From a virus, in IMG/VR virus record IMGVR_UViG_3300029319_007985, positions 32,001 through 96,000 of that record: a DNA stretch of 64,000 bases; one strand, given 5' to 3'. Positions within the stretch are counted from its first letter, which is position 1. Every line of letters starts with the position of its first letter. The notes beneath the pieces were generated by a model. It was not told where the DNA came from. It saw only the letters and a list, made by a program, of their open reading frames with translations, and did no database searches. The position numbers and the translations under genes are program-made. Positions 3,232 through 61,489 of this stretch are shown one piece after another.

Positions 3232-4665
3232 ATGCAGGACGTACTTCAAAAAACACTAGATAAAAAATACCAAGCAGGGTTTACCACCAATGTGGAGTCG
3301 GAAACTTTACCACCAGGTCTAGATGAAAATACAGTAAGAAAGATTAGCAAGATCAAAAATGAACCGGAGTGGTTGCTAAAGTTTAGATTGAAAGCATTTG
3401 ACAGGTGGAAAATTTTAAAAAAGCCTGATTGGGCAAATTTAGAAATAGAACCAATAGACTATCAAGCAATTAGTTACTATTCAGCACCAAAAAAAGGACC
3501 AGCATCATACGATGAAGTTGATCCAGAGATCAAAAAGGACTTTGAAAAATTAGGAATACCTCTCCATGAAAGAGAAAAACTAGCAGGGGTGGCGGTAGAT
3601 GCAGTTTTTGATTCTGTGTCTGTGGCTACAACGTTTTCAGAAGAATTGAAAAAATTAGGTATAATCTTCTGCAGTTTTAGTGAAGCGGTACAGAACCATC
3701 CTGAACTTGTGAAAAAGTATTTGGGTTCGGTTATTCCAATCAGTGACCATAGTTTTGCGGCCTTGAACAGTGCAGTATTTACAGATGGATCATTTGTGTA
3801 TATTCCACCAGGTGTGAGATGTCCTATGGAACTGTCAACGTATTTTAGAATAAATGCGGCCAACACTGGACAATTTGAACGAACACTTATAATAGCAGAT
3901 CGAGACAGTTATGTAAGTTATCTAGAAGGATGTACAGCACCTATGAGAGATGAGAACCAATTACATGCGGCCAATGTGGAACTGGTTGCTTTGGACAACG
4001 CAGAAATAAAGTATTCAACCATACAGAATTGGTATCCAGGAGATCCTGAAACAGGCAAGGGTGGTATCTATAACTTTGTTACAAAAAGGGGAAAATGTAT
4101 TGGAAAGCATTCAAAGATTACATGGACCCAATTTGAAACAGGTTCGAGATTAACTTGGAAATATCCAAGTTGTATTTTGATGGGTGACAACAGCATTGGT
4201 GAATTTTACAGTGTGGCTCTTACTAATGGCCGACAACAGGCCGACACAGGAACCAAAATGATACACATAGGTAAAAACACTAAAAGCACAATCATATCAA
4301 AAGGCATTAGTGCAGGTAAAAGTTCCAACACATATCGAGGACAGGTCAGCATAATGAAGAGGGCAATTAACAGTAGAAACTTCACTCAGTGTGATAGTTT
4401 GATGATGGGATCCGGATGTAGTGCTTCAACTGTGCCTGTGATACAAAATAGGAATAGCAGTTCAACCTGCGAACACGAAGCCACCACTAGCAAATTAAGT
4501 GATGAACAGATGTTTTACTGTATGCAGAGAGGCATACCAACCGAAGACACAATCAATATGTTGGTCAGTGGATTTTGTAAAGAAGTTTTCCAGAAACTAC
4601 CAATGGAGTTTGCCGCGGAGGCAAATAAACTACTAGAAATTAGTATGGAAGGTTCCGTAGGCTAA
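3232..4665 (+). CDS. sufB: Fe-S cluster assembly scaffold SufB
   Basis: [52 protein letters not shown] motifs; full length 477 aa. Confidence 0.97.
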
Positions 4666-9590: not shown

Positions 9591-9891
9591 ACTAGGCAAA
9601 CTGACTTTGGTTACACCACCCAGTATCTTAGAAGATAACAAAAACAGTTTTTGTATAATAAACTTCAAAACAGAAGATCAAGACAAGTTTGCCAATTATC
9701 TAAACAGGCATCTAGCAAATGATGATGTTGTTGTTTACGTTGTAGACAGTGCCAAGGACACTGAATTAACTTTGCCATGGTTGACAAACATACTAGAAAA
9801 GTCTAAAACTGTTATAGTTAAATCACAAAATAATTTTAAAGTTTTGAAAAACGAAACAATAATTGACTTGGAGGCGATATTCAATGAGTGA
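9577..9891 (+). CDS. hypothetical protein
   Basis: ORF overlapping both neighbours in the operon. Confidence 0.6.
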
Positions 9892-11146
9892 TACAGATCA
9901 AAATCTTAATTGTTCTTTCTGTGGTAAGGGCAGGAAAGATGTCTCAAAAATGATCGTTGGTGCTGATAAAGTTACAATTTGTAATGAGTGTATAAAATTA
10001 TGCACAGAGATCATTGTGGAGGATAACCAAAAGGTTAGCAGTGAGCAAATCAAAACTGGTGAGAAACAAAATTTAAATCCTGTGGACATAAAAGAATATC
10101 TTGATCAATATGTTGTTGGGCAAGACTCTGCAAAAACTGTTCTTAGTGTTGCTGTGTCTAATCACTATAAAAGAATTTTAAATCCACCAAAGGACTTTGA
10201 ATTAGAAAAATCAAACGTTCTTATACTTGGTGCAAGTGGTTCCGGAAAAACACTTATGGCACGAACCATTGCCAAATATTTGGATGTGCCTTTTGCTATG
10301 GCAGATGCTACAAGTTTGACCGAGGCTGGATATGTTGGTGATGACGTTGAAAATGTAATCACTAAACTTTATCAAAACGCCAAGGGAGACAAATACATGA
10401 CTGAAAGAGGCATTGTGTTCATAGACGAAATTGATAAAATTTGTAAGAAATCAGAAAGCACCAGTATAACCAGAGACGTATCCGGAGAAGGAGTTCAACA
10501 AGGTTTACTTAAAATAGTCGAGGGCACAATTTGTAGGGTTCCACCACACGGAGGAAGGAAACACCCTGAACATCAACACGTTGAGATCGACACCTCAAAC
10601 ATTTTGTTTGTCGTTGGTGGTGCTTTTACAGACCTGGAACGACAAATTAAATCTAGAAAAAGCACAGGAATGGGTTTTAACTCTGAATTGATATCAAGCG
10701 AACAAAAAAACTACTTGGCAGAATCTCAACCAGAGGACCTAATTAAATTTGGACTGATACCGGAGTTTGTTGGCAGATTTAGTATGCTTACTCACGTGGA
10801 TCCATTGACAGAACTTCAATTAGTAAAAGTTTTAAATGAACCAAAAAATAGTTTACTGAAACAATATTCCTACTTGTTTAGTCTTGATCATATTAATTTA
10901 GAGATAGACAAAAAGGCCCAGTTGGCTGTTGCTAAAAAGGCTAAAAAATTAGGCACAAATGCAAGAGGATTAAGAAACATCTTGGATACTCTTCTCCTGC
11001 CTTACCAGTTTGACTCTGCTGAGATGCATAAAAAAGGAGTCACAAAAGTATCAATCACAGAAGAGTGTGTTGACAAAAACCAAGATCCTGTGTTACATTT
11101 TAAAACACCGGTAAACGAAATGAAAAAACAAAAGGCGAAAAATTAA
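9884..11146 (+). CDS. clpX: ATP-dependent Clp protease ATPase subunit ClpX
   Basis: CSFC/CNEC Zn finger, GASGSGKT Walker A, GYVG pore loop, [19 protein letters not shown] docking loop; start set to ATG 9884. Confidence 0.96.
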
Positions 11147-11376
11147 TGGCATACTACGTGGATGTTACAAAATCTGGCGGAGATGCTGTTCGAGCCTATA
11201 GAAAAATCAAAAGAAAGATCAAACAAGACAGGTTCATTGAGGAACTACGTGATAGACAATATTACCGTAAACCTTCCGAATTAAAACGTGAGAAACAAAA
11301 GAGAGCACGTATCACAATAAAGAGAAACCAAGCCAAAAGTAATTGGGCAGATCCAAGTAAAGTAAGACAAAGATAA
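11146..11376 (+). CDS. rpsU: ribosomal protein bS21
   Basis: RAYRKIKRK...ELRDRQYYRKPSELKR matches S21 (R.yY.KPS..r). Confidence 0.85.
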   Translation: MAYYVDVTKSGGDAVRAYRKIKRKIKQDRFIEELRDRQYYRKPSELKREKQKRARITIKRNQAKSNWADPSKVRQR

Positions 11377-15327: not shown

Positions 15328-15430
15328 CTGTGCTAAAAGCATAGTGGGAAAGTGACGTGAAATTCGTCCACATTACTTGATACGGTCATAGTCCGAATGC
15401 CACCTAGCACAGGACAGAGCAAGGAGACTC
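15328..15430 (+). ncRNA. class II (AdoCbl-variant / env8-like) cobalamin riboswitch
   Basis: CTGTGCTA/TAGCACAG closing stem, AGTGGGAA, GACGTGAAATTCGTC T-loop, TACTTGA loop, CCGAATGCCACC B12 box, P13 GAG-CAAGGAGA-CTC holding the RBS; precedes a BtuB-like gene. Confidence 0.9.
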
Positions 15431-15432
15431 GA

Positions 15433-17262
15433 ATGATGAGATTAGTTCTTATGTTAATCTTGGTGTGGACATCTATCGCACACGCCAAAACGGAAAGTTG
15501 CAGTTGGGACAACGACGTTCCATGTGTCGTAATATCCAAACCAAATACAAATTTAATAAATGAAAAGGTGTCACCCAGCACGGTGATCACACAAGAACAA
15601 ATCAAAAAACATAATCTTTTGGACCTTAAAAGTGTTTTCAAGTTCCTCAACAACACAATTGCCGTGCAGTCAGGACCTACTGGACAACAGGCATCAGTTT
15701 TCATGCGAGGTACAAACAGCAACCACACACTAGTGTTATTGAACGGAATACCTATCAACGATCAAAGCACCACCAATGGTGCCTTTGATTTTGGACAAGA
15801 CTTCCTTTTCAACGTGCAAAGAATAGAAGTATACAAAGGTGCCGCTGGCGCACACTTTGGCGCTGACGCTATAGGAGGTGCAATAAATTTAATAACTGAC
15901 ATCGACTATCAAAATAACTTTTCAATAACAGGACATAACAATAGTAAGACCATAGAAGGAAACTATGCCTCTGAATACAATGGTTGGCAGTTTAACGTCA
16001 AAGGTGGATTGCATCAGTCTGAAACACAGTCGGCTCTAAAGGGAGGAACTGATCTTGACGGGACAAAAAATAAATCATGGACCGCAAGTGTAGTTAAATG
16101 GTTCAACGAAAAATTAAAATTTAGATCGAACCTCTTTACAAGAAATACTTTTAGTGATCTGGATGGCCATTCATTGGCCCTGCAAAATGGATATGACAGC
16201 GACAACAATCTTTATGCCTTCCAAACTGGGTTTGACTACTACACTAAAGACAGTCTCAGTTATGTCACACTGCACACCCATGGATATGACAGAGAGTACA
16301 ATAGTCCAGGCAACGAGTTCGACAACTATGAATCTGACGCCTACGTATTAAGAGCAGAACATAAAAAATACAAAGATGGGCCTTTCAAGTATGGACTAGG
16401 ATTTGAATACAAATACGATGTGGCCACGTTCACCAACAACGGATCATACAACAGCACATTGGATGGGGACTATGATAACATAGGACTATTTGTTAATTTT
16501 GGATATGAGTTCGACAACTGGGCAACCACGTTGAATCTAAGAACAGATGACAACAACCTCATAGGTAACAACGACAGTTACAAATTTGGGATATTAAGAC
16601 AGGACATATTGCCAAATCTCGATGTAAGTTTCAGTCGTGCAGAAGGGTTTAAAAATCCTAGTCTGTATGAAATGTTTGGTGCTGACAACTACGGATACAA
16701 AGGCAACATGGATTTGACAGCAGAAAACAGTATCCTCAACGAAGTCACGTTCGACTATGGTATTGACAAAAGCAAATACTCTTTGACATTGTTTAGAAAT
16801 CAAATAACAAACATGATCGAATACAGTTATCCAACATACAAAAACAATAGCACTGACTCTCTGGACCAAAGCGGAATCGAATTGTCCTACTCCTACAACG
16901 GAGATAAAAATAATTTCACCATTTGGGCAAACAGTCTCAGTAGTGAGAAAGGCAACAATTCAGCGCAGTTGAGGAGACCTGAGCATAGCATTGGTTTCAA
17001 TTATGAAAGGGTAGTCACCAACACATGGAGTTACTATGCAAACTACAACTTTACAGGCGAACACCATGACATACACAACAGTAATTGGAGCACAATTACC
17101 ATGCCCGACACCCACTTGCTTGATATAGGTATAACAAAAAATTACTATGGAATCGATTTAGGTTTAAGTATTAGCAATGTTTTCGACCAAGACTATGAAC
17201 AACCACATGGATTTAGTCAGGATGGAAGAAAAATTAATTTTATACTTAAACGTAGGTTTTGA
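15433..17262 (+). CDS. btuB: TonB-dependent receptor, BtuB-like cobalamin transporter
   Basis: Signal peptide from ATG 15433; plug motifs SVFMRGTNSNHTLVLLNG, RIEVYKG, FGADAIGGAINLIT; C-terminal NVFDQDY...F; under cobalamin riboswitch. Confidence 0.88.
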   Translation: MMRLVLMLILVWTSIAHAKTESCSWDNDVPCVVISKPNTNLINEKVSPSTVITQEQIKKHNLLDLKSVFKFLNNTIAVQSGPTGQQASVFMRGTNSNHTLVLLNGIPINDQSTTNGAFDFGQDFLFNVQRIEVYKGAAGAHFGADAIGGAINLITDIDYQNNFSITGHNNSKTIEGNYASEYNGWQFNVKGGLHQSETQSALKGGTDLDGTKNKSWTASVVKWFNEKLKFRSNLFTRNTFSDLDGHSLALQNGYDSDNNLYAFQTGFDYYTKDSLSYVTLHTHGYDREYNSPGNEFDNYESDAYVLRAEHKKYKDGPFKYGLGFEYKYDVATFTNNGSYNSTLDGDYDNIGLFVNFGYEFDNWATTLNLRTDDNNLIGNNDSYKFGILRQDILPNLDVSFSRAEGFKNPSLYEMFGADNYGYKGNMDLTAENSILNEVTFDYGIDKSKYSLTLFRNQITNMIEYSYPTYKNNSTDSLDQSGIELSYSYNGDKNNFTIWANSLSSEKGNNSAQLRRPEHSIGFNYERVVTNTWSYYANYNFTGEHHDIHNSNWSTITMPDTHLLDIGITKNYYGIDLGLSISNVFDQDYEQPHGFSQDGRKINFILKRRF

Positions 17263-21241: not shown

Positions 21242-22195
21242 ATGAAACACATAACACAAATCCTTTGTGCAGTGTTTTTATTCTCAACCACAGTATCGGC
21301 AAAAACTCCAGCAATCAAAATTGTAGGTAGTTCAACTGTCTATCCTTTCACCACAGTAGTGGCAGAAAGATTTGGACAGGAGACAAAATATCCTACACCG
21401 GTTGTTGAGTCTACAGGTACAGGTGGCGGAATGAAACTATTCTGTGCAGGGGTAAACACAAACACTCCTTCTGTGACCAATGCCTCCAGAGCAATTAAAA
21501 GCAAAGAGAAAGCATTGTGTGAAAAGAACGGAGTATCATGGATTGAGATCGCAGTGGGCAATGACGGTATTGCTTTTGCCAATTCAAACGACGGACCAAA
21601 GATAAACATCACAAAGAAGCAGTTATGGGAAGCCATGGGTGCTCTTGGATCACATCCTAAGAAATGGTCAGACATAGACGCAAGTCTACCAGACCAAGAA
21701 ATCAAAGTGATGGTACCACCTCCAACATCAGGAACCAGAGATGCATGGAACAGTCTTGTAATGAAAAAAGGATGTCCTAAAGACATACTTGAAGCACAAG
21801 GCAAAAAGAAATGCTATCTTTTGAGAGAAGATGGAGCAATGGTTGAAGCAGGAGAAAATGACACTTTGTTAATACAAAAACTTGTGGCAGATCCTAAATA
21901 TTTTGCAATATTTGGATTCAGTTATCTAGACAATGCAAGAGACAAAGTAAAAGCGGCAACAATTGAAGATGCAGAAATAAGTCTTGATTCTATTCAGGAC
22001 TATTCTTATCCGGTGGCTAGACCTTTATTCATATACATCAAAAAAGAACACATAGGTACTGTTCCAGGACTGAACAAGTTCGTTAAGATGTATGTCAGTA
22101 AAAAGACCATGGGTCCAAAAGGTTACTTGATTGACAGAGGACTAGTGCCTTTGGACAAAGCAACCTACAAGGAAATGGTAAGCAGAACCAAATAG
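21242..22195 (+). CDS. pstS: phosphate ABC transporter substrate-binding protein PstS
   Basis: IVGSSTVYPF, ESTGTGGGMKLFC, NASR, PPPTSGTRD, YPVARPLFIY. Confidence 0.95.
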   Translation: MKHITQILCAVFLFSTTVSAKTPAIKIVGSSTVYPFTTVVAERFGQETKYPTPVVESTGTGGGMKLFCAGVNTNTPSVTNASRAIKSKEKALCEKNGVSWIEIAVGNDGIAFANSNDGPKINITKKQLWEAMGALGSHPKKWSDIDASLPDQEIKVMVPPPTSGTRDAWNSLVMKKGCPKDILEAQGKKKCYLLREDGAMVEAGENDTLLIQKLVADPKYFAIFGFSYLDNARDKVKAATIEDAEISLDSIQDYSYPVARPLFIYIKKEHIGTVPGLNKFVKMYVSKKTMGPKGYLIDRGLVPLDKATYKEMVSRTK

Positions 22196-22231: not shown

Positions 22232-23041
22232 ATGAAAAGATTGGGTATTGTTGGACATGGCTTTGTGGGATCTGCTATCAATCAAGGCTTTACCAAAAAC
22301 ATACAGAAATACATTGTTGATCCAAACAAGTTCAGTGGCAACACAATTCAACAACTTATAAAATTCAAACCCGACGCAGTGTTTGTTGCGGTTCCAACTC
22401 CACAACTTGAAACAGGAGAGTGTAACACAGAAATATTGGATTCAGTGTTGCAAGAACTGAATCAGGCAAAGGCCCTTTTAGTCATCATCAAGTCCACAGT
22501 GCCCGCATATAAACTACAAGCGATCAAAGAACAGTGTATAAATTTGAGAATAGTGTACAATCCAGAATTCCTAACTGAAAAGAATTATCTCCAGGATTTT
22601 AAAAGTCCTCCCATGCATGTTTTTGGAGGAGCAATCACAGACACAGAACAAGTTGAGGCGCTGTACAAGGAGTACAGCAGTTGTAAAAAGTGTCCTGTTT
22701 TCCATACAGACATCGTGTCAGCGTCTATGGTCAAGTACTGCATTAACAGTTTCCTTGCCACGAAGGTCACGTTCATGAACGAGATGTATGACGTGCTGAA
22801 AGCGGCCAAAGGAACTGATTGGAGTGAGTTTGTCAAAATAATCAACAGCGACCCAAGGATAGGCAAGACACATATGAGGGTTCCAGGCAATGACGGAGTC
22901 AGAGGTTACGCCGGGTCATGCTTTCCCAAGGACACTGCCGCACTGGCCTATTTTGCCAGAGAGATACTGAACACGCCATTTACACAACTAGAAACTAGTA
23001 TTGAAATCAACGACAAGTTAAGGAAAAAGAACCAGTCCTAA
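22232..23041 (+). CDS. UDP-glucose/GDP-mannose dehydrogenase family protein (short form, no C-terminal domain)
   Basis: GHGFVG, VPTP, IKSTVP, NPEFL, GYAGSCFPKD; TAGACA-17-TAAAAT promoter at 22197-22225. Confidence 0.85.
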   Translation: MKRLGIVGHGFVGSAINQGFTKNIQKYIVDPNKFSGNTIQQLIKFKPDAVFVAVPTPQLETGECNTEILDSVLQELNQAKALLVIIKSTVPAYKLQAIKEQCINLRIVYNPEFLTEKNYLQDFKSPPMHVFGGAITDTEQVEALYKEYSSCKKCPVFHTDIVSASMVKYCINSFLATKVTFMNEMYDVLKAAKGTDWSEFVKIINSDPRIGKTHMRVPGNDGVRGYAGSCFPKDTAALAYFAREILNTPFTQLETSIEINDKLRKKNQS

Positions 23042-24267: not shown

Positions 24268-24846
24268 ATGAGCACTTATCTAGATGGAAAACTTTTGGTT
24301 GCTCCTCCAAAAATGAAAGATTGGAGATTTGCCAGAAGTGTGGTTTATATCTTCAAACATGACGTCAGTGGTGCGGGCGGGATCATAGTAAATAAAAAAG
24401 TTAGTGTGCCCACCTTTGACACTGTTTGCAAAACAGGCCATATCAAAAAAGATCCAAGTGTAAACCCCACAATTTTTTATGGCGGCCCAGTTATGACCAA
24501 TCTGATTGGTTGCTTACACACCTTGGATTATAGAATAGGAACCACCAATGTCTCTACAAGCAATGTTGGATTTACTCTAGACAAGAGCATAATAGAAGAT
24601 ATCGCAGTCGGCAAAGGCCCCAAAAAGTTTTTGCTTACCATGGGAATCTCTAGTTGGGAAGCAGGACAACTGGAGTCTGAAATCGATGCGCTACCACCGA
24701 GACAAAAAACAGGTTCTTGGCTCTCAATCAATTACGACAAAGAAATAGTTTTTGGACCCAAACTACAGTCCCTTTGGTCAGATTGTGTTTTTAGGTGTGT
24801 TGAAAACACAACCAAAGACTTCACAGACAAAGTTTTTAAAAATTAA
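24268..24846 (+). CDS. YqgE/AlgH family protein
   Basis: GKLLVAPP.M.D.RF.RSVVYI..H...GAGGIIVNK, YGGPV, G.SSW.AGQLESEI. Confidence 0.88.
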   Translation: MSTYLDGKLLVAPPKMKDWRFARSVVYIFKHDVSGAGGIIVNKKVSVPTFDTVCKTGHIKKDPSVNPTIFYGGPVMTNLIGCLHTLDYRIGTTNVSTSNVGFTLDKSIIEDIAVGKGPKKFLLTMGISSWEAGQLESEIDALPPRQKTGSWLSINYDKEIVFGPKLQSLWSDCVFRCVENTTKDFTDKVFKN

Positions 24847-25250
24847 TTTACTGGACAGGTACTAATAAGTTTGTACCAAAGTTCATCATATTCCCAATTC
24901 AGTCCGTGAACTTCCAACATGTATTTTTTCTGTAGAGGATACACATCTTTTTCCCACTCTTGTACGCATTCACCTTTGAATCCGTTCTGGTCCTGCACAT
25001 AATGAAACAGTTCGTGGAACAACACACTTTTCTTCCATGGGTCATGGATATCAAAATCGTCCCTGATATAGATGATATCTTTTTTTGTGCTGTAAAAACC
25101 TTTTAGATTTCCACCACCGGTCGTGGTTTCTCCGTATATTTCTTCCAACTGTGCCTGCGGTAACATGATCACTTGAGGGTGTGGAAGGTCAACGTTGTAG
25201 TTTGTATTTGCTCCAATCCAAAGGAGCATGAACGCAATCACTGACTTCAT
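24843..25250 (-). CDS. secreted HExxH (zincin-like) protein
   Basis: Start MKSVIAFMLLW at 25250; LFHELFHYVQ; minus-strand TAAATA at 25261-25266. Confidence 0.65.
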   Translation of the reverse strand: MKSVIAFMLLWIGANTNYNVDLPHPQVIMLPQAQLEEIYGETTTGGGNLKGFYSTKKDIIYIRDDFDIHDPWKKSVLFHELFHYVQDQNGFKGECVQEWEKDVYPLQKKYMLEVHGLNWEYDELWYKLISTCPVN

Positions 25251-25365
25251 AATATACGCATATTTAATCCGATAAGAACTTAGAATAAACACCTATATAA
25301 TAATAGTATATTATTAATTTAGTAAACTGCTCTGTAAATAATCATGAGCGAGGTTAACGTACTAA

Positions 25366-28300
25366 ATGGCAGGTCACACAGAATCTATACAAATATCTTA
25401 CGAACAGTTGTCGCAAGGCAAGTATGTGCGTAATGGTGATGACCTTTCAATTACTACTCATGACCTATGGGGAGAAGCCAAAACGGTTCTGCTCAAAAAC
25501 TATTTTGAAACATCTCCCGACCTCGTCACTTTAAAAGGATCCACTCTCAAAGGCAACATTGTTAACCTCTTGGCTGTAGACAGTCAACCCGATACATCTA
25601 ATGTTGCTTTTGAGGATCCCAATGCCATAGGTAAAATTACAACCGCTGATTTGCCGGTCATAGTACAACGTGCGGACCAATTCATAGAATTACAAAAAGG
25701 CGATCTAATATATCTCAACGATGTGATAGATGCCAAAGACGGCAGTGTGGGTGTTGCATTCAAAGACGACAGTTCAATATCTGTTGACCCCGGTGCCAAA
25801 ATGGTCATAGACGACTTTGTGTATGATCCTGCTGAACCCACAACAGGATCCATGAATGCCAATATTATCACAGGAAACTTTTCTTTCATATCAGGACAGA
25901 TTGCCAAGACTGGCAACGATGCCATGCAGGTCACAACTCCTGTTTTGACCATAGGTGTTAGGGGAACAAATGTGGCAGGTAAAGCCAACCAAGACGGAGA
26001 AGAAAACGAAATAGTTTTACTTCCAAACGAAGACGGCACTGTTGGACAGGTCATGATAACAAACCAATCTGGATCTGTTTTATTGACAGAAGCATTTCAG
26101 GCCACAACCATAGCAACGGCTCTACAACCACCAACTGTGCCTGTGATACTGCCAAAAGAGATTGTGCTTAAAAAGTTTGCGAAAACGATAGCCACAACCA
26201 AAAAGACCAAAAAGTTAAGAGAAACAGAAAAAGAAGCAGAAGAGGCCGCTAAAGAAAAAGTGGAAGCAGAGGAAGAGAAAGAAGAACTGGAAGAAGAAAA
26301 AGAAGAATTAGAAGAAGAAGCCGAGGGGTTGGAAGAAGAGAAAGAACAACTTGAGGAGGAGGCCGAAGCACTGGAAGAAGAAGCGGAAGCACTGGAAGAG
26401 GAAAAAGAGCAGATCGAGGAAGAAGCAGAACTTGTTGAACAAGAAAAAGAACAGGTTGAAGAAAAAGCAGAGGCTCTGGAAGAGAAAGCAGAAGAACTTG
26501 AGAAGAAATTGGAAGAAGTGCCTGTTGAAGAAAAGGAACAGATCGAAAAAGAACTAGAAGCAATCGAAGAAGAGATTCAAGAAGTTGAAGAAATCAAAGA
26601 AGAGATTGACCAGAAGGTCCAAGAAGTAGAAGAAAAAATACAGGAAGTACAGGAAAAAGAACAGATAATAGAAGACAAAGCAGTAGAAATTGAACAGCAA
26701 GTTAAAGAAGTCGAACAACAGGTTCAGATAGTTGAAGAAAAATTTGTGCAAGTTGAACAACAGTTTGTTGAAATTGAAGAAAAAATAATACAGGTAGAAC
26801 AGAAGTTTGAACAGATTGAACAGGACTTCGAGCAGTTCCAACAGGAGTTTGTACAAGAATTTAAAGAATTTATTCCAGAAGAAGAACTACAACAGTTTGT
26901 AAATGAGGCACCAATTGAAATCATTCAAGACGTGCAAGAAATGATCAGAGAAGACATCAAAAACAATCCAGAAATTTTTGATCAAGAACCAGAGGTAATA
27001 GAAGAAGAAATAATTGACGAGGATCCTTTCCAAGAAGTGCCTGAAGAAGATGTAATTCTTCTAGATCCTGAACAGGACTTTGATCAAATGAAAGAAGAGT
27101 TTGAACAATTTGTAGAAGAAAATCCAAATGAAGTTCCTGAAGAAATACAAGATGTTTTTGCTGAGGCAGACAACATGGAAGAGTTTAATGAAGAAATGGA
27201 TGCCTTGATGCAGGACGAAGAGTTCATACAAAAGTTGGAAGAACAAATGCCAGTGCAGGATGAGGTGTTCAATGAAGAACCAGTGATAAAAGAAGAAGAG
27301 CCAATATTGGTTGAAGATGATTTACAAATTGAACAGCAAATCAATTATGATTACAATGAAGATGATCTGTTTATCGCATATGAGGGGCCTATTTTGGAAA
27401 TTGAAGGTCACAACGAACTAATAGAAGACAATAATTTTATTATTGAACTAACTCCTGAGGGAAACAATAATGATGATCTGCAATTACTGGTACAAGACCA
27501 ACAGATCGTGGCCAGTCCACTGGCTATTTCTTCCACTTCAACTGTGTCTATGGCAGAGAACGCCAGCGATGGTGCCACGGTGGCGGACATAGATCACACA
27601 GGAGGAGATGGCACAGTCACATATTCAATAACAGCAGGCAATGGTGAGGGCAAGTTTTCAATCAACAGTTCAACAGGCGTTATCACATACAACACACAGG
27701 CGGCTGTGCTGACTACGGAAACATTTGAAAGCACCACAGAAGGTGCCACACCAACAGGTTGGACAGGGGCAACAGTGGACGCAACAACCTACTACGGAAA
27801 CATATTGGGTAGGTTCAATGGAGATTCAAACACAGGACAGGATGTCTATAAGACATTTGATTTTGACAGTTCCCACGCAGGCAAAAGAGTCCAGATAGAT
27901 TTCAACTTCTGGGAGTTTGGTACGTGGGACGCAGTCAATCACGGATCGCTGGATCAGAGATTCATGGTGTATGTCAACGACACCTTGGTGGTACAGGACT
28001 TGAGAAGATACACAGGCAACAACCAACAGAAGTACGGTGAGACAGTGGGTAACCTTGGCACAGGTTGGACACCATTACCAAAGGAATCTGGAATGGCCAC
28101 CATAAACGGACAACAAGAAGGTGAACTGTACAGACTGTATGGTACCCTGGACGGCAACGGTGACATCAAGTTGGGATTTGGAGCCAGACTGGACGAATCT
28201 CTCAGCAACGAAAGTGCCGCTGTGGACAACATAAAGATTTCACTCACGGATCTTAACTATGAGGATGCCACATCACACACTTTAACAATAACTGCCACTG

Positions 28301-29781
28301 ACGCAAGTAACAACACAGACTCCGTCACACAGTTGATCACAGTGACTGACGTTAACGAAGCACCATACTTCATTGACAACGTGTACGCGGCAAGAACAAT
28401 AGACGAGAATGGTTCGTCTGGCACAGATGTTGCGAGAGTACACGCAGAGGATCTGGAGGGAGATGCAATCACTTATTCAATCACAGCGGGCAACACAGAC
28501 AACAAATTCACAATCAACTCATCCAACGGTTTGATAGAAACAGCAGGCGCACTGGACTATGAGACAACCAGTTCATACACATTAACAGTGACAGCAACAG
28601 ACGAGCACAATGCCACTGGCACCACAACAATCACAGTCAACGTGGGCAACGACACCAGTGATGACGTTCCCAACGATCCCGCAACATGGGTAACAGCAGG
28701 CGACGGATCAGCAGGTGCATACAAACAAACGATTGCCTATGCGGGTCCTGGCACAGATGGTAGAGATTATGCCTCAGCATTGGGACACCAAGGACTAGAT
28801 TTCAACGGTGCTATTGCAAGTAACTTCAATAGTTATGATGTTATTTGGTACCTCAACCAAAGCAACAGTTCATTCACAAACTCTGTATTTTACAATGACA
28901 CTAGATTCACTGATTGGCTCAACAACGGTGGTGTGTTCATAATGCACGATAGATATGTCAATGACAGTCAGTTGGACAATAACCTTCCGGGACACAACGG
29001 CAATGTAACGACTACCAGATCCTATGGTGGTAATGATTCCTCATCATATCAGATAGTGGACGAGAGCACCAGCAACCTACTCAAATACGGACCGGGAGGT
29101 ATCATGGTGGACGACACATCTTCATTTGGATCTGATACAGCAGGAGATCACTCCGGCAATACATGGCAGGGCACATTCAACATTGGTGGTGGTAATGCAA
29201 CCAATCACGGATACATGACAAATCTTGACAGTGACGTGTTGGGATTGGCAACCAACAACACCACAACACGGTACGTGGATGCGGTATGGGAATATGGATC
29301 AGGTGCAGTGTACTATTCCACATCACCACTTGACCACTACATAGGAGCCGCTCCCCAAGATAACGATGCTTGGGACGCCTATGCACTCAACAGTTTACAC
29401 TATGCCACTTCATTAATATTTGATGGATACTCACAGATCAACGGAACAACCAACGAGGACAAGATATATGCTACCGCAGGAGATGATGTGATATATGCTG
29501 GTAACAGTGCTGACACTATTTGGGGTGGTCAGGGAGACGATGTGTTTAAATATGACGCCACAGCAGAGTCTAACTCATCAGCCGTTGACACAATTCTGGA
29601 CTTTAACAAAGATGAAGATTCAATTGATATCAGTGCAATCACCAGCGGAGCATCTATTTCACGCACACTTACAGGCGGCACTAGATTCAAATTAGACATA
29701 GACAACAACGGCACTTACGACATGGAGTTTGAATTGTCAGGATACACGGGCACAGCAGATGATGTGACAGTGGTGACTTAG
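25366..29781 (+). CDS. giant T1SS-substrate-like protein: BapA-prefix-like N-terminus, FecR domain, acidic coiled-coil rod, cadherin repeats, RTX-type C-terminus
   Basis: RNGDDL.I...LKNYF; FecR motif VTTPVLTIGVRGT; EEEKEEL heptads; TYSITAGN..LDYE..DVNEAP cadherin; GGQGDDVF...DTILDF secretion-signal region; no Sec signal. Confidence 0.85.
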   Translation: MAGHTESIQISYEQLSQGKYVRNGDDLSITTHDLWGEAKTVLLKNYFETSPDLVTLKGSTLKGNIVNLLAVDSQPDTSNVAFEDPNAIGKITTADLPVIVQRADQFIELQKGDLIYLNDVIDAKDGSVGVAFKDDSSISVDPGAKMVIDDFVYDPAEPTTGSMNANIITGNFSFISGQIAKTGNDAMQVTTPVLTIGVRGTNVAGKANQDGEENEIVLLPNEDGTVGQVMITNQSGSVLLTEAFQATTIATALQPPTVPVILPKEIVLKKFAKTIATTKKTKKLRETEKEAEEAAKEKVEAEEEKEELEEEKEELEEEAEGLEEEKEQLEEEAEALEEEAEALEEEKEQIEEEAELVEQEKEQVEEKAEALEEKAEELEKKLEEVPVEEKEQIEKELEAIEEEIQEVEEIKEEIDQKVQEVEEKIQEVQEKEQIIEDKAVEIEQQVKEVEQQVQIVEEKFVQVEQQFVEIEEKIIQVEQKFEQIEQDFEQFQQEFVQEFKEFIPEEELQQFVNEAPIEIIQDVQEMIREDIKNNPEIFDQEPEVIEEEIIDEDPFQEVPEEDVILLDPEQDFDQMKEEFEQFVEENPNEVPEEIQDVFAEADNMEEFNEEMDALMQDEEFIQKLEEQMPVQDEVFNEEPVIKEEEPILVEDDLQIEQQINYDYNEDDLFIAYEGPILEIEGHNELIEDNNFIIELTPEGNNNDDLQLLVQDQQIVASPLAISSTSTVSMAENASDGATVADIDHTGGDGTVTYSITAGNGEGKFSINSSTGVITYNTQAAVLTTETFESTTEGATPTGWTGATVDATTYYGNILGRFNGDSNTGQDVYKTFDFDSSHAGKRVQIDFNFWEFGTWDAVNHGSLDQRFMVYVNDTLVVQDLRRYTGNNQQKYGETVGNLGTGWTPLPKESGMATINGQQEGELYRLYGTLDGNGDIKLGFGARLDESLSNESAAVDNIKISLTDLNYEDATSHTLTITATDASNNTDSVTQLITVTDVNEAPYFIDNVYAARTIDENGSSGTDVARVHAEDLEGDAITYSITAGNTDNKFTINSSNGLIETAGALDYETTSSYTLTVTATDEHNATGTTTITVNVGNDTSDDVPNDPATWVTAGDGSAGAYKQTIAYAGPGTDGRDYASALGHQGLDFNGAIASNFNSYDVIWYLNQSNSSFTNSVFYNDTRFTDWLNNGGVFIMHDRYVNDSQLDNNLPGHNGNVTTTRSYGGNDSSSYQIVDESTSNLLKYGPGGIMVDDTSSFGSDTAGDHSGNTWQGTFNIGGGNATNHGYMTNLDSDVLGLATNNTTTRYVDAVWEYGSGAVYYSTSPLDHYIGAAPQDNDAWDAYALNSLHYATSLIFDGYSQINGTTNEDKIYATAGDDVIYAGNSADTIWGGQGDDVFKYDATAESNSSAVDTILDFNKDEDSIDISAITSGASISRTLTGGTRFKLDIDNNGTYDMEFELSGYTGTADDVTVVT
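26269..26436 (+). repeat. 21-bp/7-aa tandem heptad repeats
   Basis: EEEKEEL EEEKEEL EEEAEGL EEEKEQL EEEAEAL EEEAEAL EEEKEQI EEEAELV. Confidence 0.9.
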
Positions 29782-29802
29782 AATAAATATGGATACATTA
29801 TT

Positions 29803-31443
29803 ATGAAAAATTGGGCGTACTTTTTAATAGCAATTCTCTTTCTGACTGTGTCACCTGTGTCTGCTGAAGACGAAAACAAAGGTTGCAAGTGGGAAACTGT
29901 GGAAGAAACAGAACAGTTTATCAGGGAACAGTGTATTGGTGATGGGCAGTTGCAGGTTCGAATGAAGTCAAAACCTGTGCCAGGTGTCACTGTGATCGAA
30001 GCACCAAACACCAAAAAAAGTAATCCTTTAAAAGAGATCAAGGAAGTAGTAAAAAGCAAAGAAGCAAAAAAACAAGAAAAGAAAATTGAAAAGATTGAAC
30101 AGGCAGTAGAAGACACTGCTAAAAAAGTAGAAGAAGTCAAAAAAGAAACAGTAGTAAAAAAACAAGAGCCAAAAGTTGAAAAAGAAAAATCCAAAAAGTC
30201 AAATTGGAAGAGGCCCTACCAACTGCTACCAGAACTAATTTTAAACAATGAAAAAATTCAAGCGGCCGAACTAGATTATGATGCCGCCCTTGAAACACTA
30301 AAGTCTGAATACAGTGCGTACAAACCACAGGTCAGTGTCAGCATTGGACAGAACTGGGAGGACGATAGGACTCCTGCAAAGGGAACTTATCCCAACAACA
30401 CAATCACACATGACAGCAAAAACGGATTGACCAAGTCGATCACCATCACACAGATGTTGTGGGACGCAGGAAGAACTAGCAGTGTTGTTGACAAGGCCAA
30501 GCACACGGCACAACAGGCATACTTCAGGCTTGATCAGGCCAAAGAAGACCTAATGGTTGAAGCACTAAACGCCTGGATCAATTTAGGCAAAGCATACAAC
30601 AACTGGCAGAGCAACATGAAGGTCCAGAAAAATGCAATGACCACACTGAAGATGACCACCGAAAAAGTGAAAAAAGGTGAAGCATCCAAAATGGAACAGT
30701 TGCAGATTGAACAGCAGTTTAGAACATATCAAACTTTGACCATGACTAGCAAATTGGCCTATGACAGTGCGGTAGAAAGATTTAGAACAGTTTGGAAGTT
30801 TACGCCAAAAAATATTGATCAAATGCCAATGCCCGTATCGGATTTATTAGGTATGATTCCAGAGGCAGGCACCAACGTTAAGAACAACACCACAATAAAA
30901 ATTGCCAGCATGGATGTTAAAATTGCTGAACAACAGTTGAGGTTTGACAATGCTGATTTCAAACCAAGAGTTGATGGCAAATTGAGTTACACAGAAAAAG
31001 AGGGTGAACTTGGTGGCGGATTTGATAACGAACAAAAAGAAGAATGGCGGGCAGACATCACAATGACCTGGCAGGTGTTTGGTGGATTCAAAAAAACCCA
31101 CGTGTACAGAGCCGACAAGAGCAGATTAAAGGCCGCTGAAATAAGACTGACAGACACAGTAAACGCAACACAGGAGCAGTTCAATAATAGTTGGAACAAT
31201 TATGTTCTCGTAGAAAAAAATCTTAAAACACTGAAACGTACTGTCGAAATAAATCAAGAGATGTATAATCTCACATTGGCAGACTTCAAAGCAGGAAACA
31301 CACCTATCATGGCAGTGTTTGGCATGAAAACTTCATTGATCATGAGTGAGGTTGCATATCAAAATGCTCAGTTGGATTTGACTATAGCAAGATACCAATT
31401 ACACAAATTGTTAGGCATAGTTAATCCATTGTTCAAACAATAA
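29803..31443 (+). CDS. TolC-family outer membrane factor with K/E-rich N-terminal extension
   Basis: Signal peptide; two OEP repeats (YKPQVSV..QMLWDAG; FKPRVDG..WQVFGG; FKAG); ARYQLHKLLG ending. Confidence 0.88.
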   Translation: MKNWAYFLIAILFLTVSPVSAEDENKGCKWETVEETEQFIREQCIGDGQLQVRMKSKPVPGVTVIEAPNTKKSNPLKEIKEVVKSKEAKKQEKKIEKIEQAVEDTAKKVEEVKKETVVKKQEPKVEKEKSKKSNWKRPYQLLPELILNNEKIQAAELDYDAALETLKSEYSAYKPQVSVSIGQNWEDDRTPAKGTYPNNTITHDSKNGLTKSITITQMLWDAGRTSSVVDKAKHTAQQAYFRLDQAKEDLMVEALNAWINLGKAYNNWQSNMKVQKNAMTTLKMTTEKVKKGEASKMEQLQIEQQFRTYQTLTMTSKLAYDSAVERFRTVWKFTPKNIDQMPMPVSDLLGMIPEAGTNVKNNTTIKIASMDVKIAEQQLRFDNADFKPRVDGKLSYTEKEGELGGGFDNEQKEEWRADITMTWQVFGGFKKTHVYRADKSRLKAAEIRLTDTVNATQEQFNNSWNNYVLVEKNLKTLKRTVEINQEMYNLTLADFKAGNTPIMAVFGMKTSLIMSEVAYQNAQLDLTIARYQLHKLLGIVNPLFKQ

Positions 31444-31461
31444 TAGTTAAATACGCATATA

Positions 31462-32208
31462 ATGACAAGTCTTATTCGACAACTATTTCGAGATAAAACT
31501 GTGGCGGCCATGCTGTTGGTCAGCAGTTTTTTTATTGGTGTATGTGCATTGGCACCTTCGCTATTTGTTATAATAGTTTTAAACAAATTTTTGGCCAGTG
31601 GAGTCACAGCGACTCTAGTAAGTTTGGCATTTGGTGCTGTACTGCTTTTGGCCTTTGAACTGGCATTTAGACAGAACAGATCCACAATGATACAGGAGTT
31701 CAATCAAAAAGTATTTGATCCATTTATTAAAATGGTAAAAGACAGATTGTCCCTAAAACAGATCACAGGTGAACAGTTTAAAAAAGTTCAACAAAATGCC
31801 AATATAATAAAAGCCACAACTTCTCCGGGCATTACAGGTTGGGTCTTGGATTGGCCATTTGTGTTGATGTTTGCTGTGATACTTTTATTAATAAATTGGA
31901 CCGCGGCAGTTATAACAGTAATTTTTATGTTGATCACTTTAGCAGTCAACTTTTATCAAAGTAATCTAAACATCACGAACGACAGTAAAGCAAACTTGGA
32001 AATATTCATTATGGGACTTTTGACCATAACCATTATAAGTGTTGGTTCACTGCAGGTGATGGCTGGTAATCTAGACATAGGATTATTGATTGGTTCTAAC
32101 ATATTGGCGGCACGAGCAGTGCAAGGCACAAGCAAGTATGCTAAAGGAGTTGATGCTTTACGACAGAGAGAAAAAGCAGTAAGGGAGATTAATGAAGTCA
32201 TCAAGTAA
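31462..32208 (+). CDS. type I secretion ABC transporter transmembrane domain only (no ATPase domain)
   Basis: LALAPSLF.I.V.N, TL..L..G, LDWPF, GNLDIGLLIG..IL..RA typical of PrtD/LapB TMDs; ends at 248 aa with no Walker A/B. Confidence 0.8.
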   Translation: MTSLIRQLFRDKTVAAMLLVSSFFIGVCALAPSLFVIIVLNKFLASGVTATLVSLAFGAVLLLAFELAFRQNRSTMIQEFNQKVFDPFIKMVKDRLSLKQITGEQFKKVQQNANIIKATTSPGITGWVLDWPFVLMFAVILLLINWTAAVITVIFMLITLAVNFYQSNLNITNDSKANLEIFIMGLLTITIISVGSLQVMAGNLDIGLLIGSNILAARAVQGTSKYAKGVDALRQREKAVREINEVIK

Positions 32209-32890
32209 ATTTTTTCTATTATTAAGTAGTTTAATTATTGGCCTGTTTGTATGGTGTTATTTGGCCAAAGTTGACATAACTTTCCAAGCACCAGGACATA
32301 TCGAAACACAGAGCAATTCAACCACTATCGACACAATGGTGGATGGTCAGATAGAAAATGTATTAATAAGAGAAGGTGATATTGTTAAAGAAGGAGACAT
32401 AGTGGTTGTGATTAATCCAGGAGTTGGCTACGAAAAATATAATGTTGTTGCAAATATAAATGGAAGGGTGCAGAGTCTTAACTATAAAAATCCAGGTGCA
32501 GTTGTAGAAAAGGGCGAATCAATATTGACCATAGTGCCGGAAGATCAAAAAATGGTTGTTATGGGCAAACTGTCTGTATCTAATAGAGGTTACGTCAAAA
32601 TAGGAAACATAGCCAAAGTAAAATTGGCAAACCAGGATCAAATAAGATTTGGACCGATCACAGGAATAATTTCAAACATATCACCAGATGTGGTGTACAC
32701 CGACGCAGGAACCTATTACGCGATTGAAATTTTATTGGAATCACAACAATTTAGTAATGGTAAAGATAATTATTTGTTAGTACCAGGCATAATGGTGGAA
32801 GTTTACATTTTAACCGGAGAGAGAACAGTAATGAGTTACATCACAAGTCCTTTCCATAATAGCCTTGGACAGGCATTACAGGAGAGATAA
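32192..32890 (+). CDS. HlyD-family membrane fusion protein, shortened
   Basis: N-terminal TM, GQIENVLIREGDIVKEGD lipoyl half, ANINGRV, GAVV..GE.IL.IVP, G.ISNISPD, LVPG..V...I.TGERTVMSY..SP...ALQER. Confidence 0.85.
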   Translation: MKSSSKFFLLLSSLIIGLFVWCYLAKVDITFQAPGHIETQSNSTTIDTMVDGQIENVLIREGDIVKEGDIVVVINPGVGYEKYNVVANINGRVQSLNYKNPGAVVEKGESILTIVPEDQKMVVMGKLSVSNRGYVKIGNIAKVKLANQDQIRFGPITGIISNISPDVVYTDAGTYYAIEILLESQQFSNGKDNYLLVPGIMVEVYILTGERTVMSYITSPFHNSLGQALQER

Positions 32891-33018
32891 TGCTGACTTG
32901 GTTTTTAGCAGGAATTTTTATTGGATTGTGTATAAGATGTATATGCACTCCACATAAGAATGAAGAAGAAAAATTTAAAGATCCATGGAACTGGACTTCA
33001 TTTGGCGGAGGAGGCTAA
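32890..33018 (+). CDS. small membrane protein (42 aa, not in ORF track)
   Basis: MLTWFLAGIFIGLCIRCICTP...DPWNWTSFGGGG*; TAATG-coupled at both ends. Confidence 0.6.
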   Translation: MLTWFLAGIFIGLCIRCICTPHKNEEEKFKDPWNWTSFGGGG

Positions 33019-33239
33019 TGGATAAGAAACTATCCTATAAACAAAGATTTAAAAAGGCTTGTAACACAGATAACGTGATAGATTTCAGTGTTGACGTTGG
33101 TTTAATTGCCTTTGACGTACTAGCCTCACCAATACTAATCGTAGTGAGAATAGCAAGATTCTATATTAGGAAATTTGTTAACAATTATCTCAAACGTTTT
33201 TTAAAATGGTTTGTGCATAAAGTTTTAAGAATAAAATGA
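33018..33239 (+). CDS. small basic membrane-associated protein
   Basis: Start MDKKL after GGAGG; TAATG/ATGA coupling to neighbours. Confidence 0.6.
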   Translation: MDKKLSYKQRFKKACNTDNVIDFSVDVGLIAFDVLASPILIVVRIARFYIRKFVNNYLKRFLKWFVHKVLRIK

Positions 33240-35074
33240 GTAAAAAATTAACAAGTGTCTGGATGGTGGTAGCACTATCCTTGATCTTATTTTCTGCTAG
33301 ATTATTTGATACAAGTCCTGTTGAAACTTTAAGGTTAAAAACATTTGACTACTATCAAAAGATATCACCCAGAGACGTAACTACAAACTCTGTAGTCATA
33401 GTCGAGATTACGGAGCAAGATCTTAAAAAATACGGCCAATGGCCATGGCCAAGAAATTTAATTGGAAACTTACACAACAGGATATATCAGCACGGGGCAA
33501 AAGTAATCCAATACAATATAATATTCGCTGAAAAAGATAGGGCCGGCAAGGATGAACTTTTTGCACAAAAATTAGCCGGCACTAACACCGTGATGATGTA
33601 TAGTATAAAAGATTCTGCCACAGACGGACAGGTGGCAAAGGTTCCTATTGTAAAACAAGGTGAGCCTGACAAATTTTTGTATAGTTTCAAAGGAGTGGTA
33701 ACAAACATATCGGAACTATTAAGATTCGCTAACGGTGCCGGAGTTAATATTATGGTGCCTAATATAGATGGTACCATTAGGCAGATCCCTTTATTTGTAA
33801 ACACAGACATAGGCACAATACCAAATCAAGTTCTAGACACAATAAGAGTTTACAATAAAAATAACAAATATAAAATTGTTGCAGATAACAACGGTGTTAC
33901 TGAAATACTTCTAAGTAGAAACAAAAAGATCTACACTGATTCTAACGCAATGTTCAATATAAATTTTGCAGAAGCAATAACCATCACAAAATACAGTGTA
34001 ACCGATATTATCAAAAACAAAATTAACCTAGAAAACAAAATTGTTGTAGTTGGGTTGAATGCCGCGGGATTGAGTTATTTAAAAGATACTCCTCTAGGAC
34101 TCATGACCGACACACAAATTAGTGCCCAGGCTATAGAAACTGATCTTACAGACAGCCAACTTATAAGAAATGGTAATACCAATCTAATAGAAATAATAGC
34201 AGTTTTTGTCATTGGATTTTTACTGATAGCCTTAGTGCCCAGGTTTAATATTACCAGCACTGTGCTCGCTTATTTGACGCTTTTAACCGGCATAATTTCG
34301 TCGAGTTTGGTCGCCTATAACGGTTACAATTATATGCTAGACGCATCTTTTCCGGTCTTGTTTATTACCATCATTTGGGGCCATTTGGTATTCAATAGTT
34401 TTGCCAAGCAGTATAGATTAAGGCAACAAATAAAGAAACAGTTTGAACATTATCTTGATCCACGCATGGTCAAAAAATTACAGAAGGATCCTGGGTTATT
34501 GAAGTTGGGTGGAGAGACAAAAACCATGACATTTATGTTTTCAGACATCCGAGGGTTCACTCCTATATCAGAAAAATACAAGGGCAATCCACAAGGACTC
34601 ACACGTTTGATCAATAGGTTTTTGACACGTATGACCAACATTATAATCAAAAACGGTGGCACAGTTGACAAGTACATGGGCGATTGCATAATGGCATTTT
34701 GGAATGCTCCGTTGGATACGCCCAGACATGAAACTTTAGCCATCAAAACTGCATTGCAAATGCAGAAAGAACTTAAAAAATTAAACAGAGAACTTAAAAA
34801 GGAAAAACTTCCTCAAATCAATATTGGCATAGGAATAAACACAGGAGAAGCATTAGTTGGCAACATGGGCAGTGATCAGCGTTTTGATTATTCTGTTATA
34901 GGTGATGATGTCAACTTAGCAAGTAGATTAGAAAGCAGTTCAAAGGAACTACAGACAACTTTGGTAATTGGTGAGAAAACACGTATAAAATGTAAAAAAA
35001 TTAAGTTTACTTCGCTGGGTTCAATCAAAGTAAAAGGAAAAACTGAAGACATCAAAGTGTACACGGTTAAATAA
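33236..35074 (+). CDS. CHASE2-domain class III adenylate cyclase
   Basis: GQWPWPR CHASE2 motif, three TMs, FSDIRGFT, DKYMGDCIMAFW, DYSVIGDDVNLASRLE, VKGK. Confidence 0.93.
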   Translation: MSKKLTSVWMVVALSLILFSARLFDTSPVETLRLKTFDYYQKISPRDVTTNSVVIVEITEQDLKKYGQWPWPRNLIGNLHNRIYQHGAKVIQYNIIFAEKDRAGKDELFAQKLAGTNTVMMYSIKDSATDGQVAKVPIVKQGEPDKFLYSFKGVVTNISELLRFANGAGVNIMVPNIDGTIRQIPLFVNTDIGTIPNQVLDTIRVYNKNNKYKIVADNNGVTEILLSRNKKIYTDSNAMFNINFAEAITITKYSVTDIIKNKINLENKIVVVGLNAAGLSYLKDTPLGLMTDTQISAQAIETDLTDSQLIRNGNTNLIEIIAVFVIGFLLIALVPRFNITSTVLAYLTLLTGIISSSLVAYNGYNYMLDASFPVLFITIIWGHLVFNSFAKQYRLRQQIKKQFEHYLDPRMVKKLQKDPGLLKLGGETKTMTFMFSDIRGFTPISEKYKGNPQGLTRLINRFLTRMTNIIIKNGGTVDKYMGDCIMAFWNAPLDTPRHETLAIKTALQMQKELKKLNRELKKEKLPQINIGIGINTGEALVGNMGSDQRFDYSVIGDDVNLASRLESSSKELQTTLVIGEKTRIKCKKIKFTSLGSIKVKGKTEDIKVYTVK

Positions 35075-35081
35075 TATTACA

Positions 35082-35255
35082 ATGACAGGTTTAGAAGTAA
35101 TGACAATAGTATCAAAGGCATGGCCAATCTTCCTTGGCTTCATTCTTTTAATTGTAACTTTGGCGCAGGCCCACTACAGAATAAAGGTGCTTGAAGAAAA
35201 AGTTAAAGTTGCCTTTGACCTAATCAACAAATTGACAGACAAGTTTAGCAAATAA
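35082..35255 (+). CDS. small single-TM coiled-coil protein (57 aa, not in ORF track)
   Basis: WPIFLGFILLIVTLAQAHYRIKVLEEKVKVAFDL; TAAATA at 35068. Confidence 0.6.
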   Translation: MTGLEVMTIVSKAWPIFLGFILLIVTLAQAHYRIKVLEEKVKVAFDLINKLTDKFSK

Positions 35256-61042: not shown

Positions 61043-61489
61043 ATGGGACAAATAGAAGATTTACAAAATAAAGGTTTTGGCAGTCACGGTGGAAGACAGT
61101 ACACCGTTGAATATGATATTACTCCATTAAAGAAACGTGTTTTGGTAACAAACATGAAATTTGGAGAGATCAAAACTGCCGGGGGAATAATTATACCTGA
61201 CGATGACGGTACCGAATCTGGCATACACCCGCGTTGGGCAGAAGTGTACGCAGTAGGTAGCAAACAGGAAGACGTCAAAGTAGGGCAATGGATATTGGTG
61301 GCTCACGGCAGATGGAGTAGATCTTTCAAAGTTAAAAAGAATGGAAAAGAATTTGAAGTGAGAATGATTGATGAAAATGACATTTTATTAGTTTCTGACG
61401 AAAGACCCGCTGACGAAACATCTAAAAAAGCAGGTTACGTAAACACTGGCGGTATGCAACAAATGACAAGTTTACCGGGAAATGATTAA
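61043..61489 (+). CDS. groES: GroES-like co-chaperonin
   Basis: [10 protein letters not shown]...[10 protein letters not shown]...VYAVG...VKVGQ.IL...IDENDIL. Confidence 0.85.

Follow-up and report, generated by a model that had tools for sequence, protein, structure and literature searches.

A marine phage module that pairs an ATPase-less type I exporter and a FecR-bearing giant protein with a CHASE2 adenylate cyclase

Pelagiphages are known to carry a module that combines curli secretion (the type VIII secretion system), a FecR protein and an adenylate cyclase (Wittmers et al. 2022, PMC9599517; also PMC7029224, PMC9004378). Here we describe what, by comparison with that module, appears to be its type I secretion system (T1SS) form. 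It was found in a stretch of 64,000 nucleotides (hereafter the window; positions 32,001 to 96,000 of the IMG/VR virus record IMGVR_UViG_3300029319_007985), and consists of five genes in a fixed order: a giant protein, a TolC-family channel, the membrane domain of an ATP-binding cassette (ABC) exporter, an HlyD adaptor and a CHASE2 cyclase. By analogy, the module would work as an exporter of the LapA type to which a receptor cyclase is coupled. A first-pass annotation, made from the DNA alone, had stated that no phage system of this kind was described. This was overstated, as the curli–FecR–cyclase version is published (PMC9599517) and the T1SS form copies a bacterial cluster.

The two phage modules are alike in being phage-borne, in their alphaproteobacterial origin and in combining FecR and a CHASE2 cyclase with an outer-membrane pore; the pelagiphage curli cyclases are 32-37% identical to the cyclase described here and group with it among phage cyclases. 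They differ in the export parts, since TolC, a mini ABC and a mini HlyD replace CsgF, CsgG and curlin (no CsgF, CsgG or curlin repeats occur in the module), and in the placement of FecR, which is a Sec-exported protein in the curli module and the N-terminus of a signal-less giant here. The two-step adhesins LapA and MpIBP (PMC10990149; PDB 5IX9) share with the giant a C-terminal RTX-type end, adhesion domains and an N-terminal retention domain, and share a dedicated TolC. In contrast to them, the phage system lacks the ATPase, the coupling loop, the hairpin and the TolC gate residues, its retention domain appears merged with a FecR fold, and a cyclase takes the place of LapD; no LapG-type protease (PF06035) was found in the partial phage records, and no conserved LapG di-alanine site in the giants.

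An outer-membrane-linked protein is also paired with a CHASE2 cyclase in Sinorhizobium (NsrA with CyaK, CyaD1 and CyaD2; PMC7529298, PMC13001267) and in a CHASE2 cyclase–FecR cluster of Campylobacterota (PMC9239204). As a precedent for such signalling, the outer-membrane protein NsrA controls the CHASE2 cyclase CyaK, with signal transfer shown genetically (PMC7529298); NsrA is a predicted beta-barrel receptor and not a T1SS substrate, and no counterpart of its Clr effector was found in the phage records covered. Borrelia BesA/BesC (PMC8277102) likewise combine a hairpin-less adaptor with a weakly gated outer-membrane channel, but belong to a proton-driven RND drug pump that has no protein substrate. 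From FecR/PupR cell-surface signalling the giant retains the periplasmic fold, whereas a membrane anchor with an anti-sigma domain, an ECF sigma factor and a TonB receptor were seen neither in the giant nor at the locus. Literature searches for a phage T1SS, or for a FecR/T1SS/cyclase cluster in phages or bacteria, returned nothing relevant, most subscription papers being outside their coverage.

The five genes lie on the + strand where the first-pass annotation had placed them: the giant (1471 aa) at 25366–29781 of the window, tolC at 29803–31443, the ABC membrane domain (248 aa) at 31462–32208, hlyD (232 aa) at 32192–32890 and the cyclase (612 aa) at 33236–35074. A synteny search in viral contigs recovered the fixed order in related loci. 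Linkage was scored on 100 distinct loci with a short HlyD, and the denominators vary with the loci that could be scored. The abc gene precedes hlyD in 76/77, and tolC does so in 62/62; the cyclase directly follows hlyD in 63/74 and is thus co-conserved with the T1SS genes. With TolC as a single-sequence query, nothing was found in viral contigs or GenBank phages; an alignment query did find relatives. One divergent phage lineage (L212:1-8387; 31% GC) has the same five genes; its TolC bears an acidic, Cys-rich extension (about 240 aa), and its cyclase is extended at the C-terminus.

The annotated T1SS-like exporter is present as far as TolC, ABC membrane domain and HlyD are concerned; what had been missed is how much of it is gone. 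The modelled ABC membrane domain matches HlyB, PrtD and PCAT1 (TM-score 0.76-0.83; TIGR03375, E 1.4e-18), yet its open reading frame (ORF) stops after the sixth transmembrane helix (TM6), the ATPase domain is missing, and about 48 aa of the TM4-TM5 coupling loop are deleted. In ABC exporters it is this loop that provides the docking helix for the ATPase domain. With the docking loop deleted, the phage protein should be unable to use an ATPase supplied in trans. No ABC ATPase domain was found in the 100 loci, and none above the cut-off in the partial genome. As a possible partner, the sole ABC ATPase in five related records was rejected, for it sits among suf genes and reads as SufC; an apparent ABC-HlyD fusion in one locus (L130) proved to be a frameshift artefact.

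The other two export parts are reduced in their own ways. HlyD keeps its lipoyl and beta-barrel parts, and its helical hairpin of about 190 aa is swapped for about 8 residues. TolC (PF02321, E 1.8e-49) aligns to Escherichia coli TolC, whose gate residues Y362, R367, D371 and D374 correspond to F495, T500, A504 and G507 in the phage protein; its best match in the Protein Data Bank is 2XMN, the sequence of which bears Y362F and R367S. Y362F together with R367S opens the TolC channel, and the two Asp residues act as a cation filter (PMC8277102). The phage channel also has a charged N-terminal extension of about 110 aa, which ranges roughly from 110 to 240 residues across relatives. An open, non-acidic TolC mouth would suit both a hairpin-less adaptor and an acidic rod in the substrate. 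ATPase, coupling loop, hairpin and TolC gate have been lost coordinately, and the genes are under purifying selection, with pairwise ratios of nonsynonymous to synonymous substitution (dN/dS) of 0.03-0.11 for the mini ABC, mini HlyD, TolC and cyclase. Judged by its sequence, the exporter cannot act as a canonical ATP-driven T1SS, two defining features of which fail.

The giant has the domains that had been annotated, namely FecR, two cadherin domains, RTX repeats and a serralysin-type (M10_C) C-terminus, and it shows no hydrophobic segment that could serve as a Sec signal and no TM segment. Its relatives are 929-1830 aa long, with a conserved N-terminus and a variable C-terminal half. In the N-terminal model (pLDDT 85), a retention-module-like beta domain (residues about 85-150) overlaps a FecR/PupR signalling fold (residues 116-275), the two being encoded at 25606–26190. 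Structure comparison of the model gives Z 15.2 and a root-mean-square deviation (rmsd) of 2.7 Å over 139 aligned residues to 4M0H for the FecR/PupR part, and Z 14.8 to PupR; from residue 85 onward, the protein resembles the anchoring domain of MpIBP (5IX9) by hidden Markov model (HMM; E 6.5e-5) and by Foldseek (TM-score 0.72, rmsd 1.3 Å), and the retention-module profile NF033682 matches below the cut-off only.

The first 80 residues (25366–25605) form an optional prefix that is common to bacterial giants and missing in about half of the phage giants. The annotation had likened it to BapA; it has no HMM match in the phage giant, and the bacterial homologues alone match BapA_N, below the cut-off. 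Phage giants without the prefix start at the retention-type domain, and LapA-type retention modules likewise begin the protein (PMC10990149). The likeness to 5IX9, the overlap with the FecR fold and the prefix-less starts together indicate that anchor and signalling fold are combined in one domain, so that the N-terminus is best read, from model and sequence, as the merger of a LapA-type retention domain and a FecR fold. The homology to the MpIBP/LapA retention domain supports the idea, already in the annotation, of an adhesin tethered in TolC, retention itself being predicted. Behind this domain lie an acidic rod (residues 276-715; 26191–27510) with a net charge of about -0.3 per residue and a weak heptad signal, and then the cadherin domains, a variable adhesion region, the RTX repeats and the C-terminus (27511–29781).

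The cyclase consists of one TM segment, CHASE2, three TM segments and a class III catalytic domain. The annotation had noted intact motifs with a Lys indicative of ATP, and this is borne out: D437, K479, D483, S553, N560, R564 and K600 are intact, the metal-binding Asp pair, the purine-selecting Lys and Ser/Thr and the Asn/Arg pair are kept in 25-26 of 26 relatives, and the closest solved structure is CyaB (3R5G, E 2e-36). ATP is thus the likely substrate. No solved sequence relative of the CHASE2 domain was found. A prediction of the FecR-CHASE2 complex with paired alignments scored 0.00, was uninformative, and is counted neither for nor against an interaction.

Among other viral CHASE2-cyclase loci with enough flank, 31/32 have CsgF/G and FecR (e.g., HTVC008M and Melnitz), and most have curlin. 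In a midpoint-rooted tree with biased composition, the T1SS-linked cyclases fall into a single clade (28 rows, support 99) among phage cyclases. The cyclase is accompanied by FecR both where the outer-membrane part is TolC and where it is CsgF/G, and one locus (L181) holds both cassettes, each with its own FecR protein and cyclase. Across loci, FecR and the cyclase thus appear to be the constant element and the pore the interchangeable one. In L180:683-7394 and L181:1-10536 the T1SS and curli cassettes stand back to back, the T1SS cassette of L180 being without a cyclase of its own. A further viral CHASE2 cyclase (L063:10001-12055) has no curli, T1SS or FecR genes within 10 kb.

Marine Alphaproteobacteria hold the same five parts at full length, in Curvivirga, in metagenome-assembled genomes (MAGs) of Rhodospirillaceae and in relatives of MAG MED657, and T1SS genes are present in 20/41 bacterial cyclase loci with full flanks. 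The bacterial cluster has the five components, the prefix, FecR and the acidic region, and is near-collinear with the phage module in L088 and L221; it differs in its full-length ABC (529-591 aa), HlyD (417-447 aa) and cyclase (about 750-800 aa) and, in the MED657-like group, in adjoining genes for cyclic-nucleotide (cNMP)-binding proteins. The ABC tree groups the phage proteins (99/96) with L088 and the small-genome MED657 relatives, a placement to be taken with caution given the long branches. The nearest bacterial ABCs have a Walker B without the catalytic Glu, no H-loop His and an altered signature, and in the nearest bacterial TolC one gate Asp is gone. In L212, where the gene order is unchanged, the ATPase is missing and a short HlyD hairpin is kept. 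Together, the eroded bacterial relatives and L212 read as a graded loss of the motor.

In MED657-like genomes the cyclase lies beside cNMP-binding genes and a cNMP-HlyD fusion, and the cNMP-binding genes are a plausible cyclic AMP (cAMP) output in these bacteria. Small-genome marine Alphaproteobacteria have a second T1SS, in which a cNMP-binding domain is fused to HlyD (whole in L219), accompanied by a CHASE2 cyclase and by one or two cNMP proteins that stand alone (L219:1027-10182; L229:91-7062; L230:11804-19998). In L218 and L219 both ABCs are without the catalytic Glu. The second system is possibly a cAMP-gated, ATPase-dead secretion system.

The locus itself is viral and not a chimera. The record behind the window is linear, 172,389 bases long and about 47% complete, and its phage status is based on its class as an IMG/VR virus and on its genes for DNA polymerase B, tail (including a tail fibre), baseplate and virion proteins; no terminase was found in the partial record. 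The module and the junctions with phage genes on its right-hand side are spanned by contigs from independent runs, long-read contigs of relatives (229 kb and 286 kb) show the same order and flanks, and the phage flanks are syntenic across many contigs, long-read ones included. Near-identical DNA is found in marine metagenomes from seven studies, two of which possibly include the source sample. Metatranscriptome contigs match pieces of the giant, tolC, abc, hlyD and cyclase genes, and prove neither transcription nor timing.

The promoter-like motif TAAATA precedes the giant (25335–25340), tolC (29784–29789) and the abc-hlyD-cyclase run (31448–31453), as had been annotated. It stands before 47/216 gene starts, against 16.7+/-3.9 in shuffles, and is depleted genome-wide. 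In relatives it is kept before the giant in 8/8, before tolC in 10/11 and before abc in 16/16, and is not kept before the cyclase, a pattern that points to a common transcript of abc, hlyD and cyclase. Late expression had been proposed from the occurrence of the motif before tail genes. The motif is real, but non-structural genes carry it too, so late timing is only an inference.

The region from abc to the cyclase had been annotated as an overlapping, coupled chain with two small membrane ORFs before the cyclase. Coupling is not complete, as 94 bp separate hlyD from a single-TM ORF of 84 aa (32985–33239), and only this ORF precedes the cyclase. The other, a single-TM ORF of 57 aa (35082–35255), follows it, has its own TAAATA at 35068, and has homologues that adjoin curli-type cyclases instead of this module. 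In several relatives nothing lies between hlyD and the cyclase, which makes the spacer ORFs variable inserts; neither small ORF belongs to the module. In many relatives (L003, L004, L167 and others), the cyclase is followed, on either strand, by two small membrane genes that are related to each other (75-95 aa); such a pair also follows the L063 cyclase and is absent from this position in the window.

We give about an even chance to the reading that the giant is passively exported, stays tethered in TolC and controls the cyclase. In this mechanism, the giant would thread C-terminus first through the ATPase-free membrane domain and the mini HlyD, pulled by the membrane potential acting on the acidic rod and by Ca2+-dependent folding of the RTX/cadherin part in seawater. 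It would then pass an ungated TolC that needs no hairpin to open; the contact may be made by the new N-terminal extension of TolC. The retention/FecR domain would fold in the periplasm and hold the giant in TolC, and binding to, or pull on, the outer part would alter the action of FecR on CHASE2 and thereby the cAMP output during infection. The annotation had proposed such a surface antenna; its parts, their linkage and the retention homology speak for it, and signalling from FecR to the cyclase is something we infer from gene context. The fuller proposal, in which an ATP-independent type I channel driven by membrane potential and folding exports a 160-kDa acidic protein whose retained FecR end reports surface contact to the cyclase, is put forward tentatively, its likelihood well short of even.

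Several observations weigh against this mechanism. HlyA export needs ATP and not Ca2+, with ATP as a mere channel opener left open (PMC5018854), and one FecR-domain gene near cyaD1 of S. meliloti is dispensable for signal perception (PMC5498481). In 11/74 loci there is no directly adjacent cyclase; 9 of the 11 continue into a FecR or curli cassette, and another (L234), which is possibly misassembled, leads into genes of bacterial appearance. Searches for cNMP-binding domains found none in the phage record and two relatives (three partial records) or in the complete HTVC008M and Melnitz, and CHASE2, HlyD and cNMP domains are all absent from the bacterial genome whose cytochrome b is closest. 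On this sequence evidence, the cAMP receptor must either be a protein of the host or one of the phage that escaped recognition, and only about 47% of the phage genome is in the record.

Part of the same evidence would fit a simpler role. The giant may serve in adhesin display only (sibling capture, aggregation or a superinfection block), the cyclase being co-inherited or an upstream regulator instead of under its control. LapA-type adhesins typically have a retention domain, cadherins and a C-terminal half that varies (PMC10990149), like roles have been proposed for phage curli (PMC7029224, PMC9599517), and the cNMP domain fused to the second HlyD of the bacterial relatives fits cAMP acting on secretion. 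The phage HlyD, however, has no cNMP domain, the full FecR fold is kept at about 70% identity while the adhesive part varies, and a change of pore type does not separate FecR from the cyclase; we consider display alone somewhat unlikely. That the same antenna is exported by a host T1SS, with the mini ABC and mini HlyD as scaffolds or adaptors joining the host inner-membrane complex, is unlikely, even though the canonical T1SS requires ATP (PMC5018854) and related T1SS genes occur in small-genome marine Alphaproteobacteria: the ATPase-docking loop is deleted, Walker B and H-loop are degenerate in the two ABCs of the closest bacterial cluster, and one host candidate has no HlyD.

Truncated ABC and HlyD subunits could also be dominant negative and poison a host T1SS, or an open TolC could be a leak for uptake or lysis, with the giant cytoplasmic or packaged in the virion. 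The promoter motif shared with tail genes and a weak PHROG minor-head match over the cadherin region point this way; the upkeep, in fixed order, of a complete substrate (with retention domain and RTX end) and of a cyclase would be left unexplained, which makes interference or a virion role distinctly improbable. That the module is a captured bacterial operon in decay, or a chimera made in assembly, is hardly credible. Three parts are indeed truncated or degenerate, and in one metagenome contig (L234) bacterial-looking genes adjoin hlyD; yet dN/dS is low in the genes listed above, the best 120 of 849 proteins matched in the mini ABC profile search are all 248-250 aa long, and the syntenic phage flanks and junction-spanning runs stand against a chimera. 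Length constancy of the ABC, dN/dS and linkage largely refute this reading. In the L234 contig (L234:733-6509), the hlyD is 89% identical to that of the window and is without a cyclase.

Next to the module, and divergent from the giant on the - strand, lies a gene for a DUF6647 HExxH protein (24843–25292) with a hydrophobic N-terminus and its own TAAATA. It neighbours the giant in at least 10/15 loci and is a possible accessory; a part as release protease for the tethered giant would be speculative. Host-type genes elsewhere in the window are SufB-like (3232–4665), ClpX-like (9863–11146), ribosomal S21-like (11146–11376), TonB receptor-like (15397–17262), PstS-like (21242–22195; named by eye), UDP-glucose dehydrogenase-like (22232–23041) and AlgH (24268–24846). 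The phage cytochrome b (61489–62748) is closest (66%) to that of a 1.41-Mb alphaproteobacterial genome with 30% GC, among 251 sampled. Cytochrome b and SufB assign the host, at 66-73%, to small-genome Alphaproteobacteria only. None of the claims draws on the unpublished genome G050. MAG MED657 was rejected as host evidence, as it contains a phage copy as well as a bacterial one and its phage contigs look mis-binned; several contigs of this MAG ("Rickettsiales MED657") are apparently of this phage family (L083; L220; G010 contigs C3, C5, C12 and C19).

The module offers a natural, selected test of whether ATP is the motor of a T1SS or only opens its gate, both models being on record (PMC5018854). 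If the ATP-independent reading is true, FecR and a CHASE2 cyclase would be a general core that works with interchangeable pores (TolC, CsgG or a beta-barrel). The pelagiphage curli module is also seen anew, as a constant FecR and cyclase with a swappable pore, which points more to sensing than to fibre making. If this is true, common marine phages would equip small oligotrophic hosts with a surface receptor and a source of second messenger of the phages' own.

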